Of a stretch of DNA of 64,000 bases, positions 6,216 through 13,215 are shown in pieces (position 1 is the first letter of the stretch; each line of letters begins with the position of its first letter). A program made the translations under genes and the position numbers. The stretch comes from Octopus vulgaris. Lineage: Eukaryota. The stretch covers positions 20,460,001 to 20,524,000 of the forward strand of contig OX597818.1 in the NCBI GenBank assembly GCA_951406725.2. Reading direction: 5' to 3'. Below the pieces are notes generated by a model. The model was not told the origin of the DNA. It searched no databases and worked only from the letters and a program-made list of their open reading frames with translations.

Positions 6216-7005
6216 GTTTATATACACACACACATATACATATATATATATATATACACTCACACACATATACATAGAAATGTGTGTGTGCGTGCATGTG
6301 TGCGTGTGTGCATGTGTGTGTGCGTGTATGTGTGTGTATGCAAATCTCAGATACACGCACACACTCACACACTCACACACTCACATACTCAGATTCTTTG
6401 TTGTTTACACAAGCAGTTCTATCCATTCAGACAAAAACAGTAGCGACCTCTAGCTATCAAAACTGACATGCACCTACATAAACAGTAGCATTTGTTTCTA
6501 TAACCGCTAATTAGTTTATTCACTGCAGCCTACACACACACACACGCACACACACACATATACACACACACACACGTACATACACACATACACAAACATA
6601 CATGCGCAGACATATACGCATCTGCATACAATCACACACGTTCATACACGCATAGCATGGTATTTTCATATTCATTCGAACAGGCACAAACACATACACA
6701 TATATAAAAATAAAATTCTTACGATTAAAATTACAAACACACGCACACATACACACACACACACACACTCATACACACACACACATACACACACACACAC
6801 ACACACACTCATACACACACACACACACAGAGGCATACAGGCAAACGATCATGCGTACATATGCAGATACTTTAAGCATTCATATAAAATATGTAATGCA
6901 CACATGGATAAAAACAGATAAATATACGTGTATGTGTGTGTGTGCGTGTGGTATATATACATATATGTGTGTGTGTGTACATATATGTACACATGCATAT
7001 ATAAA

Positions 7006-7093
<88 letters not shown>

Positions 7094-7110
7094 ATATATA
7101 TATATATATC

Positions 7111-8032
7111 CTGACAGACGATACAAAGAAAACAAGGACAGATCATTCGAAGTTTTCTATGCTCAGTCGAGTTCCAGATTATCTTTGCAATTTCGGCTGG
7201 TTATACTCGAGATTGCTCCAATCTGGCCAGCCCCAAGGAAAAAATAAGCTAAGAGCATTACATTCCTTGGAAGAAAGCAGCGAATATATACGAAAACAAG
7301 AACGGAAAAAAAAGAACAGAGAAATGTTACATAAATAAAAATAACAGGACATAACAACAGGTGTCTTTCGACCAAGGACGAATTAAATTAAGCTGGCGTG
7401 TTTGGAAGTAGAGCCTTACGGCAGGGACACAAGATTTAACAGGCACGGAAGAAATATAGATGTTGCGCGGTAGTCAAACCAAGAAAGGTCAGGCCTGGTC
7501 GAACACCAGTCATGTGGCCTTCTTTTCATGCTCACTTTCCCTCTTTCACTTCACAGTGTCTCTTTCATTTTTTCTCGCCCCTCCTTAATTCTTTTATCCC
7601 TCTGCCTCTACCTCTCTCTCTTATCCCTCCACGTGACCGGTGTTCGACCAGGCCTTACCTTTTCTTTCTTTCTTGGTTTGACTACTGTCTGTGCAACATC
7701 TATATTCCTCTCTGTACCTGTTAAATCTTATGTCTCTACTGTAAGGCTTTTCTTCCATACACGCCAGCTTAATTTAATTCGTCCTTGGTCGAAAGACACC
7801 TGTTATTTGTATTTGTGTAACATTTCTCTGGGTTTTTTCCGTCCTTGTTTTCGTATACATTCGCTGCTTTCTTCCACGGAATGTAATGCGATTAGCTTAT
7901 TTTTTCCTTGGGGCTGGTCAGATTGGAACAATCTCGAGTATAACCAGCCGAAATTGAAAAGATAATCTGGAACTTGATTGAGGATAGAAAACTCCGAATG
8001 ATCCGTCTTTGTTTTCCTTGTATCGTCTGTCT
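7111..8032. repeat. Long imperfect inverted repeat (arms about 400 bp, pyrimidine-rich spacer about 110 bp)
   Basis: 7114-7517 is reverse-complementary to about 7629-8030 (CAGACGATACAAAGAAAACAAGGAC... / ...GTCTTTGTTTTCCTTGTATCGTCTG). Confidence 0.9.
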
Positions 8033-8099
8033 GGATATATTGTTGTTCCTTTTTTGTTTTACATAACTGTCTGGATGTTCTGCGCTTTTGTTCCATTTT

Positions 8100-8175
<76 letters not shown>

Positions 8176-8315
8176 TTGTGGTATATTCTGTAAAGAACGT
8201 AGTAGAGTACAGTATAAAGAAAGCTCTTCCGTTTTCAGATTTCACCCTGTGCTATCTACTTGTATTATACGTACTTCCAGGTTTGAGTTTAGATCTCTGT
8301 CGTGTTTGAATAGTT

Positions 8316-8355
<40 letters not shown>

Positions 8356-8496
8356 TATATAGAAGGTTTAGAACTGTTTCATTCAGAGCTCTTGAATGAA
8401 ACAGTTCTAGTCTGTGCTCCTCTAATAATAAATTAATTTTACTCTGCTATGTATAGTACCTTATTTACTGTGGTTAACCCGAATCAACCCGGGACC

Positions 8497-8589
<93 letters not shown>

Positions 8590-8644
8590 GTTTCTTTATT
8601 ATGCACACAGATAGTTAGGTAGAGCTTTTCTTTTGGGGGAAAAA

Positions 8645-8734
<90 letters not shown>

Positions 8735-8766
8735 GTGTGTGTGTCTCTTTATCAATACACGTATAC

Positions 8767-8800
<34 letters not shown>

Positions 8801-8949
8801 ATGTATGTATGTATGTATGCATGTATGTATGTATGTATGTATGTATGCACGTACGTATGTATATGTATATGTATGGGGCGGAAGGTGCATTTGTGCGTGT
8901 ATATGTATGAGTGTACAGAGAGAGGGTGAGAGAGAGATTGATCTTTTAA

Positions 8950-9625
8950 AAGGGAGAAATAGGTCTTAATACTTAATGTAGATTCTAGTTTTTTTATCAG
9001 CTATGAAGCCTACATAGCTTTGGATTTAAGTACCAAAACTTTTTGCGCCAAAGAACTGGACTGGTGCTGGGGCAAAATAAATAAATAAATAATTAAATAA
9101 AACTATACTCTCCTGAGTCACTTAGTAGCTTCACAGCTTATATATGTTTTGTGCCATCCGGTTCTCTATTGTAACGCGGCTGAACGTTGCAAGCGTGGGC
9201 CTTAAGTAAGAACTTATGACTACTCCATCTTGTTTATATAAAATGCCTTGTGGGCAGCGAAAAGGATACTTCTGTAGTACATATCACTAACAGCTTCTTC
9301 TTTCAAGTGGATTCTGTAGCGAATGTCTTTAGTTTAATTTGTTTATATACATTGTCTAATATAATTTCTATTGTTTCTGACACTGGATCGTTTGTAAGCA
9401 AATTTTCCTACATTTAGAGCAGAGATGGTGCGCCTACATCCTTTATATCTTCTAAATTCTTTAGAAATTTCTCATATGACCGTATGTTATAGTTCTGGGG
9501 TGTTTTTACTTTCTTCTTCTTTATTTTTTTAAGGCCATCTACTTGATATGCGATTTTATGTGTAGTTATATTTATTTACGATATTGCACGTCTGAGTCGG
9601 TTAGTTTTGATTATATGTACTTTCA
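8950..9625 (-). pseudogene. Decayed Penelope-like element reverse transcriptase fragment
   Basis: Manual translation across frameshifts gives LRRAIS...TTHKIA, ENLLTNDPVSETIEIILDNVYK, LLVICTTEVSF and YKQDGVVISSYLRPTLA. These match the PLE RT motifs LRPIIS, SLFTNVPVxETI and YxQxDGVAMGSPLGPTLA. Confidence 0.75.
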
Positions 9626-9712
9626 CTACATCCGTGTGTATGTTGTGTATATATATAAGAAATTAAAAAAGGAAAATACGCACACTTACATAGTTTTAAT
9701 ATAATTTTTAAT

Positions 9713-9747
9713 ATATCGACCGGTTTCGCTATCGCTATTCATGATAT
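9713..9747 (-). ncRNA. Minimal type I hammerhead ribozyme motif, A3:U8 variant
   Basis: Reverse strand reads AUAUC-AUGAAUA-GC(GAUA)GC-GAAA-CCGG-UC/GAUAU. Confidence 0.7.
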
Positions 9748-9897
9748 TATGTTTTACTTATTTGAATATATATTTTTTCTTAAGAAGAAATTTGGTCCAT
9801 GTTGTGTGTGATGGAATTCACGAGTGAATTTCATCACACACAACATGGACCAAATTTCTTCTTTAGAAAAAATATATATTCAAATAAGTAAAACATA

Positions 9898-9932
9898 ATA
9901 TCATGAATAGCGATAGCGAAACCGGTCGATAT
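9898..9932 (+). ncRNA. Minimal type I hammerhead ribozyme motif, A3:U8 variant
   Basis: Helix I ATATC/GATAT, core ATGAATA, stem II GC-GATA-GC, GAAA, palindromic ACCGGT, UC cleavage site. Confidence 0.7.
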
Positions 9933-10039
9933 ATTAAAAATTATATTAAAACTATGTAAGCGTGCATATTTTCCTTTTTTAATTTCTTATATACATTATA
10001 ACTCACCACGTGGGGATAATCGAAATTCCTCTTTTCTGT

Positions 10040-10196
<157 letters not shown>

Positions 10197-10208
10197 ATAT
10201 ATATGTAT

Positions 10209-10899
10209 CAGTGGCAACTCCGGCTCTCGGGCTGTTCGGGCTTAGCCCGTGTATAAATTTAGTAAAGTGAACGTGTAGATGCAAGCTAATCAAAATTCCG
10301 CGAACACTGACTTAAAGTATGTAATTGTAGTCAATAACTCGGGCTCCGTTTATTGAGCCTGGTCGCAGTTCAGTTATTTTCGTTCAGAGTCTGGCGGTCG
10401 TCTTAGAGGTCGACATCGTTCACACAGAAGTTACAACCCGAGTTGTTATCAATAACTGAAAAAATTTAATTTTTTCTTGAAACAATAAATTTCTATAGAA
10501 ATTAGAATTTAAATTCCAATCTATAAAAAGTTGCCGTTCTACAATATTCTTAAAGGAACGAAAAATTTTCCCGCAACTCGGGCTAATATGAACGAACCTG
10601 GTTTATGTAAAAGTCTAATTGGTATCTCTTGTCAAGAGTACAGGCGACAGTCAGATCGCTGATGTTTGTTGTGCACTCCACTGTCGTTATTTGATTGCTA
10701 TTCTGCGCGTCTGCGTGTAAAGATCAGTTGTGTTTTGCAGGGTTGCTTTATTTTTACCCTTAACTTAGAAACAGAGGAAGACATAGTGCTAGATATATAA
10801 AATAAGGCATTTGGGGCTAGAAATATTGCAGAAAAACGGGAAATTCTTCGAGCAGGTATGTGTCTTATGTGAAATCTATGATGAGCCCGAGTAACGCTG
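10209..10899. mobile_element. Non-autonomous DNA transposon / MITE-like element
   Basis: Imperfect TIRs CAGTGGCAACTCCGGCTC / GAGCCCGAGTAACGCTG, with the internal motif CTCGGGCT repeated. No clear TSD. Confidence 0.5.
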
Positions 10900-10910
10900 A
10901 TGACCTAGAG

Positions 10911-10985
<75 letters not shown>

Positions 10986-10993
10986 ATTATTAT

Positions 10994-11390
10994 GGTGGCG
11001 AACTGGCAGAATGGGTAGCACGCCGGGCAAAATGCTTAACGTTATTTCGTCGAGTTCAAATTCCGCCCAGGTCGACTTTGCCTTTCATCCTTTCGGGGTC
11101 GATTAAATAAGTACCAGTTACGCACTAGGGTCGATATAATCGACTTAATCCGTTTGTCTGTCCTTGTTTGTCCTCTCTGTGTTTAGCCCCTTGTGAGTAG
11201 TAAAGAAATAGGTATTTCATCCATCCTCATGTTCTGAGTTCGACTTTGCCTTTCATCCTTTTAGTGTCGATAAATTAAGCACCAGCGAAACACTTGGGTC
11301 GATGTAATCGACTAGTCCCTTCCCTTCAAATTTCAAGCTTTGTGCCTATAGTAGAACGGATTGCTGCCCTTGTGGCAAAATTTGAAACTA
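10994..11390 (+). mobile_element. tRNA-derived SINE (Nin/Deu-domain-like) followed by a partial second copy
   Basis: A-box-like TGGCAGAATGG, B-box GAGTTCAAATTCC, core GCCTTTCATCCTTTCGGGGTCGAT..AAGTACCAG. Confidence 0.85.
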
Positions 11391-11416
11391 TTATTATTAT
11401 TATTATTATTATTATT

Positions 11417-11477
<61 letters not shown>

Positions 11478-11493
11478 ACATCATCATCATCAA

Positions 11494-11544
<51 letters not shown>

Positions 11545-12094
11545 TTATTTTTTAAATCTATTTATTTATTTTTGCCTTGCGACAGTTATTCTCGTGTGGA
11601 CAATTTCGTTGCAAAATTTTTGACAGATGTGATGGCTGAACGTGTACGAGCGCGTGCACACTTGTATGCATGTCAAAGTGTGTAACTATATGTGTATGTG
11701 TGTCGTCCGTGTGATTGTGAATGCGAGAAAGAGATTGTGTGTATATAGGTGTGTGAATGTGAATGCCTGTGTTAGCACATGAGCATAAGTTTCTTGTTGT
11801 TTTGTGTATGAGAGTGTATTTCTATGTCGGTGTGTACATATGTTTTTTCATACATTCTTGGCCATGTAAACGTGATTATGACTGCACATGTATGTACAAA
11901 TGCGTGTACATATGCATGTGCATAAACACATACCCACATAGGATCTATGTACGACAAAGCGATAGTGGTAGAGGCATAAAATCAGTATAAACAGCCTTTG
12001 AATGTCGTATCATATCACTGAAAGTCTTGAACAGTAGAGAGGGCTTAAACTCCGTTAGGAACAACTTAGGAACAACTCGTACATGCATACTCAA

Positions 12095-13215
12095 AAGTGA
12101 CAGAAACATTTTCAGAGTGGTGGAAGAACTACAGAACAGTTACTCTGAGAATACAACTGTCTCAATCGACCCAAAGAAGACTAGACTGACCAACCCAAAC
12201 AGAATTTGGAAGAGAGCTACCCATCATACCAGCGAAAAGCAATAGATGGCTACATATCCTGCAAATTGGTAGATAACAGCAGCATCAATAGGAAGAATAA
12301 CCTCTCCTGGACTTAATGATTGATGCATTACATCCAACCTAAAAGGAAATGCCTTCGCTATCCAGGAACAGGAAATGGCTGTTAAATACCTGATAAACAA
12401 GAGAAACAACGATGCCATTAAACCTCCACGTAGGGATAGAAAATGTCACTTATACCATCTAAAAATACTCCAAAATATCTACTAGATATCGCTTACTGGT
12501 GAGATATGATATAGCTGCTAAAACTATTTACAAATTTATCTACAGGAAGGATTGCCCGGACGGGTACATCAAAGGGTGTCTCAACTAGAAATATAAAGAA
12601 TACCGGTGGAACATTCCAATATAAACAGCAATCCGGTGCAAACGGAAGAGACATTATATTTTTCTGTGGAACTGTGAACAAAAGTCAGGCACCGTTGTAG
12701 AGGTCAGCTGTCCAATAGGTATGACGTACCTTCGAAAGTTCAGAAAAAAAAAGAACGTTTATGGTGAATTAATACAGAACTTACAGCCCTAGTATCCTAG
12801 CTATGAATTTTCTTTGTACTTTGAATTATGAATACATTAGGTTATATATCAACGGATATATTTCTCTATTGCCCACAAGGGGCTAAACATAGAGGGGACA
12901 GACAAAGGGATTAAGTCAATTACATAGACCCCAGTGCGTAACTGGTACTTAATTTATCGACCCCGAAAGGATGAAAGGCAAAGTCGACCTCGGCGGAATT
13001 TGAACTCACAATGTAACGGCAGACGAAATGCGGCTACGCATTTCGCCCGGCGTGCTAACGGTTCTGCCAACTCGCCGCCTTATATATCAACAGATATATG
13101 CACAAAAAAATAGAAGGCAAAAGAAACTGACGCGCATCCTCCAAATTCAATCTGTTAGCGGCACAGTGCAAATTTGTAAGACGTTCCAAAGAATCCCTGT
13201 CTGAGATTCTTTAAA
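12095..13215 (+). mobile_element. Decayed RLE-type (R4/NeSL-like) LINE 3' fragment interrupted by a SINE
   Basis: Residual AIQEQEMAVKYL, WNIPI and TVVEVSCP. Same family as 35900-36290. Confidence 0.6.
12861..13080 (-). mobile_element. Full-length tRNA-derived SINE (Nin/Deu-like) with a TSD of about 18 bp
   Basis: Complete head and tail, flanked by TATATATCAACGGATATA (12843-12860) and TATATATCAACAGATATA (13081-13098). Confidence 0.9.

Follow-up and report, generated by a model that had tools for sequence, protein, structure and literature searches.

Penelope-like elements (PLEs) are known to carry minimal hammerhead ribozymes, which Cervera and De la Pena (2014, PMC4209133) described as type I motifs with a helix I of 4-5 bp, a G10.1-C11.1 pair and a palindromic 15.2-16.2 region, located in a terminal repeat after the GIY-YIG domain of elements that mostly occur as truncated single copies. 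According to the available part of that paper, these ribozymes cut poorly, even as dimers, the one of Schistosoma mansoni is a U3-A8 variant, and opposite-strand pairs of hammerheads are found 100-700 bp apart. The octopus motif analysed here shares the layout, the position in the element, the prevalence of truncated single copies and the opposite-strand pairing. It differs in its core, which is A3:U8 (G3:C8 in sister families), whereas the representatives examined in Fig. S3 of PMC4209133 have C3:G8, U3:A8 (twice) or U3-G8 (once), none of them with a purine at position 3. The octopus stem II comprises 2 bp and no long helix II, as opposed to mostly 4-8 bp in the published elements, and the extra base between A9 and 10.1 is missing; this base and the long helix II are common, not universal, in Fig. 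S3.

Like the octopus families, the natural core variants surveyed by Perreault et al. (2011, PMC3088659) show 3:8 covariation and 2-bp stems II, which are common there, and in vitro activity of covarying 3:8 pairs is cited; unlike in the octopus, U3:A8 is the only natural covariant in the available text. The dimer-cleaving variants of Lünse, Weinberg and Breaker (RNA Biol 14:1499) have in common with the octopus motif the short palindromic stem III and the PLE association (PMC6765202, available part). Dimers of frog retrozyme hammerheads showed no cleavage in 8 out of 9 cases (bioRxiv 10.64898/2026.07.22.740005, available part), and non-LTR retrozymes are described as non-coding tandems of ~170-400 nt with a canonical type I hammerhead (PMC7229834, available part). 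In the available account of Neptune PLEs (Craig et al., 2021, PMC8557442), an RT is followed by a CX2-5CXXC linker and a GIY-YIG domain, and the insertions show partial tandems, inverted 5' copies, a tail at one end and a bias for microsatellites, all of which recur in the octopus elements. The same account leaves the role of hammerheads in Penelope elements open between RNA processing and a mere passenger.

PLE minimal hammerheads, the U3:A8 covariant, 2-bp stems II and opposite-strand pairs are already known. What appears to be new is a PLE minimal hammerhead with a purine-3 core pair that is backed by covariation and whose cleavage is predicted only. A search of the accessible literature for a natural A3:U8 core returned no hammerhead paper, and one for a hammerhead core with A13C found none; the alignment of Lünse et al. 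may already contain A3:U8 or G3:C8.

The motif and its A3:U8 core

The DNA studied (called the window) is the whole 64-kb stretch of Octopus vulgaris; coordinates are compiled in Table 1. Two identical 35-nt motifs (ATATC-ATGAATA-GC-GATA-GC-GAAA-CCGG-TC-GATAT) lie on opposite strands. In the base-by-base numbering, A3, U8 and C17 fall on positions 9903, 9908 and 9927 in the plus copy and on 9742, 9737 and 9718 in the minus copy. In the plus copy, helix I comprises 5 bp, stem II (G10.1-C11.1, C10.2-G11.2) closes a 4-nt loop, G12-A15.1 occupies 9918-9921 and the 15.1-16.1 palindrome ACCGGT (9921-9926) precedes the GUC triplet. The conserved bases U4 G5 A6 N7 N8 A9, G12 A13 A14 A15.1 and U16.1 H17 appear in type I order, with A3 and U8 in place of the literal consensus C3 and G8. 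The coordinates, helix I, stem II and cleavage triplet given in the original prediction were thereby verified. The motif had also been called unusually small: the 2-bp stem II is present but less unusual than supposed, such stems being described in the available part of PMC3088659.

A relaxed motif scan of the whole window detected no sites beyond these two, which, like the genome-wide counts below, speaks against a chance match. Rfam hammerhead models gave no match at E<=5 in window positions 7000-13000 and no hammerhead at gathering score in eight family loci. The predicted fold of the monomer is weak (MFE -2.6 kcal/mol, z +0.73; 152 of 200 shuffled sequences were as good). When two 35-mers were cofolded without flanks, the double hammerhead was the minimum-energy structure (-13.3 kcal/mol), in line with the earlier proposal that ACCGGT is suited to a dimeric helix III; the energy itself is ordinary, with 232 of 500 shuffled homodimers equally stable. 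In cofolds with flanks, a local hairpin captured the 3' strand of helix I and the double hammerhead was no longer the minimum. Numbering, family conservation and covariation support the assignment as a minimal type I hammerhead of a Penelope-like element, with cleavage predicted.

Table 1. Features of the locus and of related loci.
Feature	Position or loci	Strand	Remarks
Old broken RT-like relic, different element	9100..9540	-	neighbour, outside the hammerhead family
Inverted 5'-truncated copy	9649..9821	-	stops at the shorter family end, ~70 nt past C17, in TATATA
Identical hammerhead motif, inverted copy	9713..9747	-	predicted cut after 9718
Inversion junction	9816..9829	.	centred on a hairpin (6 bp, 2-nt loop) native to the family 3' UTR
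5'-truncated Penelope-like element end	9824..10041	+	3' UTR end, hammerhead and, as the tail, ~115 nt from the 5' UTR of the following unit
Minimal type I hammerhead motif, A3:U8 core	9898..9932	+	predicted cut after C9927; numbering, family conservation, covariation
(TA)n-rich microsatellite	10042..10205	.	likely insertion target; (TA)n terminates most family copies
A13C family loci	L299, L300, L312-L314, L316-L321		U3:A8 and ACCGGT retained
Retrozyme-type loci	L079-L097, L219, L222, L225-L227

The A3:U8 family and its element

The arm carrying the motif had 1,587 candidate places in the searched genome (2.8 Gb, 227 contigs), and nearly all of the 40 that were scored were 96-98% identical; the same range was obtained between the right-hand copy at the locus and its best-scoring genome copies. 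Among 27 copies picked by whole-arm similarity, A3 was retained in 27 and U8 in 26. An initial genome-wide motif pattern gave 598 matches against 0 for reversed-pattern controls, and the A3:U8 pattern 1,260 against 7, which bears out A3:U8 as the family state. Matches with A3 and another base at position 8 numbered 188 (29 controls) and those with U8 and another base at position 3 numbered 78 (22 controls). A recurrent A3/A8 match (~20 among the first 100 listed matches of the former of these two patterns) was rejected as an unrelated repeat with neither helix I nor palindrome; a GIY-YIG domain looked for in eight of its loci gave no match. In contigs of two further organisms no variant reached 3% at A3 or U8, and loop 2 varied up to ~15%.

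Locus L033 contains a nearly complete copy, in which RT motifs, a CX4CXXC linker and a GIY-YIG domain (Pfam E=2.3e-4, 21.8 bits, just below the cut-off of 22.6) were recognised. Upstream of 30 of the 86 A3:U8 motifs in the fetched loci, at least 40 aa resembled a GIY-YIG domain, and where an endonuclease was present the motif mostly followed the domain by 230-350 nt. In L291 and L293 the start codon follows position 17 by 147 and 149 nt, respectively, so that the motif marks the boundary between units. The arm is the terminal repeat (pLTR), with the motif between the endonuclease of one unit and the ORF start of the next. This organisation fits a Neptune-like Penelope element; the CX2-5CXXC linker is common to Nematis elements too (PMC8557442, available part). 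In sister elements with U at position 3 (L276-L278), long open frames are flanked by two tandem motifs at a distance of 3.5-4.0 kb. For A3:U8, no complete element was seen that has an unbroken frame between its two repeats, and the candidates L031 and L032 turned out to be segmental duplications of truncated copies. Assignment of the A3:U8 family to the non-LTR retrozymes was rejected, since the motif is attached to an RT/GIY-YIG ORF and the retrozyme-type tandems of 359 nt form a separate family.

Most family copies terminate in (TA)n. Out of 50 copies, 15 end ~70 nt past C17 and 32 end 110-129 nt past it. In the assembled contigs, a kind of data that cannot show RNA ends, there was no position at which many molecules end. 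We consider it likely that the locus holds a doubled-back Neptune-like insertion with, in its terminal repeat, an A3:U8 hammerhead predicted to self-cleave weakly as a dimer.

Covariation of positions 3 and 8

The original prediction held that the two departures from the consensus core compensate each other by restoring a Watson-Crick pair, and the sister families, with U3:A8, U3-G8 or G3:C8 at the corresponding place, agree with it. A pattern that excluded A3 and U8 had 2,170 matches against 1 control; the first 100 matches listed were 90 U3:A8, 9 U3-G8 and 1 G3/A8 (hand count). A pattern with S at both positions, which includes the G3:C8 motifs, had 266 matches against 43 controls, and 10 of 21 G3:C8 motifs had an endonuclease stretch upstream. 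Przybilski and Hammann reportedly found in 2007 that any Watson-Crick 3:8 pair is active in vitro, with a preference for pyrimidine-purine in some ribozymes.

In 21 subfamily representatives the bases at 3 and 8 were paired without exception, in four pair types. The covariation score of 3:8 was 0.844 compared to at most 0.221 for slid partners, in a set that was hand-picked, one per apparent subfamily, and in which relatedness inflates such scores. In helix I, pairing reached 86.7% and each of the 5 pairs had changed on both sides, and G10.1-C11.1 was G-C in all 21. On a tree of the endonucleases three clades were supported, U-type (100/100), A-type (97/94) and mixed G:C/A:U (97/99). The tree covers 49 of 238 motif rows, those with an endonuclease below 90 aa, more than 500 nt between motif and endonuclease or a mismatched 3:8 state being left out.

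Loci were also sampled with the protein, not the motif, as the starting point (40 loci hand-picked from 142 hits, many of them near-copies). Their 28 motifs comprised 22 U3:A8, 4 A3:U8, 1 U3-G8 and 1 cut at position 3 by the truncation junction; a canonical C3:G8 core was found in 0 of 28, which sets these families apart from the Neptune PLEs of PMC8557442 as far as its available part goes. A young U3-G8 wobble subfamily (L235-L240, L276), which counts against the preferred reading, has terminal repeats that are 99% identical and long open frames. L276 immediately follows the terminus of an element from another family, which places two different hammerhead motifs 96 nt apart. Taken together, the 3:8 states suggest that the pairing is kept by selection, although the A13C family and the C3/A8 retrozyme subfamily described below speak against strict selection.

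A paired core may have been retained for another purpose than cutting. In 11 of the 13 copies examined, a young Neptune-like sister family with open frames of 784 aa combines A13C with a weakened helix I while keeping U3:A8 and ACCGGT; A13C is thus fixed, and the core possibly dead, in a family that still spread. Together with insertion ends that lie beyond C17 and not at it, with roles besides cleavage left possible in PMC4209133 and with the spread of PLE clades without canonical hammerheads (PMC8557442; both as far as the available parts go), this family speaks for a hammerhead-derived motif that no longer needs cutting and persists as a signal that folds or dimerises, acting in ACCGGU pairing, protein binding or end formation, with 3:8 pairing structural only. 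We regard this as unlikely, as the core columns U4, G5, A6, A9, G12, A13, A14, A15.1 and U16.1 are invariant in the 21 representatives, partly forced by the search patterns, position 17 always holds C or A in this set, and the 3:8 pair belongs to the active conformation according to the available part of PMC3884650.

Still less probable, to the point that we give it little weight, is a decayed A3:U8 core carried as a neutral passenger of a successful element, with pairing coincidental from few founder events. The independent 3:8 switches are indeed few (5 changes among 4 states on the tree), the single-mismatch copies counted above exist, and one retrozyme subfamily has spread with a C3/A8 mismatch (23 among the first 100 matches listed). 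Against it, all PLE subfamily states in the sample (A:U, G:C, U:A, U-G) are paired, as are 27 of the 28 protein-first motifs, the remaining one being the motif lost to the junction. In the mixed clade, a pattern with both positions free had 227 matches against 0 controls, and the first 100 listed contained 55 A:U and 39 G:C (hand count), i.e. 94 double-change states versus 6 intermediates; a scripted check of 30 loci gave 19, 8 and 3, respectively. Since independent decay would yield more single than double changes, both the A:U and the G:C states appear to have been replicated.

The preferred reading, an A3:U8 hammerhead cleaving weakly as a dimer, can be widened to a Neptune-like radiation that left C3:G8 and, with a dimer-dependent hammerhead of ~35 nt remaining active throughout, cycled among U:A, U-G, A:U and G:C. 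This wider history is offered tentatively; it is conceivable, and the balance tips somewhat against it.

The retrozyme-type tandems (~359 nt) carry a C3:G8 hammerhead with a 4-bp stem II and have ACCGGT in common with the PLE motifs. In further sister families with irregular cores (L302, L310, L325, L326, L329; L303, L323, L330), stem II is enlarged and uneven or the GAAA stretch contains an additional A.

The inverted repeat at the locus

The arms at 9649-9821 and 9824-9996 (173 nt each, separated by a 2-nt spacer) are 97% complementary, with 5 differences, none of them inside the motif. The left arm belongs to the ~70-nt class of family ends and the right arm to the 110-129-nt class. The small hairpin at the junction was found upstream of the arm in family copies as well. 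The locus is an ordinary 5'-truncated Penelope-like insertion, doubled back. As both motif copies belong to this one insertion, they are not independent evidence; their opposite orientation means that they cannot pair, or assist each other in cis, within one transcript. In a read-through transcript, the predicted duplex of 173 bp (~-250 kcal/mol) buries the motif and leaves helix I a probability of essentially zero, so that the copy at this locus is likely inert.

Head-to-head pairs recur in the family (at least 23 pairs among the fetched loci) and are described for PLEs in the available part of PMC4209133, so the near-perfect palindrome is not the peculiarity it was first taken for. That the palindrome is functional here, as a host-co-opted hairpin or ribozyme switch or as the end of the adjacent RT element, is hardly credible: the arms differ at 5 places and the hammerhead copies, both of them intact, at none, but so few differences in 173 nt can spare 35 nt by chance, such pairs typify PLEs, the motif is buried in read-through RNA and the RT relic is unrelated in age and sequence.

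The original prediction had placed the hammerhead next to this relic, read there as a PLE RT. The best other copies of the relic have 67-75% DNA identity over stretches longer than 100 nt, and a protein comparison with the RT of the hammerhead family gave no match. A link to the hammerhead family was rejected on these grounds; the relic is an older, different element. A Pfam search of the relic pieces matched nothing, and the element is RT-like by a resemblance of motifs.

A model for the doubled-back insertion

By extension from the available part of PMC4209133, the upstream motif of a full tandem would pair with the downstream one via ACCGGU, and two active sites would form. Cutting after C17 would release a unit-length RNA, which may become a circle. 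With priming at (TA)n, reverse transcription would start ~70 or 120 nt beyond the cut site; as insertions end 70-120 nt beyond it, the template would be circular or uncut at that site. At the present locus, two cDNAs, each primed at (TA)n on its own side of a single break, may have met or annealed at the small native hairpin, which would have left the palindrome. An origin purely by snap-back self-priming was rejected, since the right arm runs into the family tail and not into the left flank.

Implications

Replicating families in which the tertiary 3:8 position switches as a pair provide sequence evidence for selection on the active fold. If confirmed, the families would amount to a compensatory-mutagenesis series made by nature, with purine-3 cores that have not been published so far; the paired families are ready natural constructs and the A13C family is a natural control. 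Published descriptors are anchored on CUGANGA (PMC4209133, PMC8557442; available parts) and therefore miss the 1,260 A3:U8 and ~2,000 U3:A8 matches in this genome. In each genome, searches of this kind would then overlook ribozymes by the thousand, and cores of this type may be present in some of the elements described as lacking a hammerhead. The common ACCGGU could let different families, and retrozymes, cleave each other as heterodimers.

Additional observations

A splice-donor-like GTAAGT lies ~30 nt past C17 in most family copies (9955-9961 on the plus and 9684-9690 on the minus strand of the window), within the 5' UTR, where other PLEs carry an intron. Contigs of a U3:A8 family in run X12, which is possibly RNA, show six A>G places at L055:1450-1545 and loose poly(T) ends near 1450; this could reflect duplex-RNA editing together with poly(A) addition, or strain differences together with a genomic A-run. 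The window contains a second large inverted repeat, with outer arms at 7104-7311 and 7833-8040 (92%) and inner arms at 7353-7449 and 7711-7807, which is probably another mobile element. Downstream of the microsatellite, a GC-richer block with short repeated CTCGGGC words (10209-10900) is followed by a repeat with an internal 77-nt duplication (10994-11370) and an inverted copy at 12896-13000. The former may be a DNA-transposon remnant, and the latter is SINE-like.
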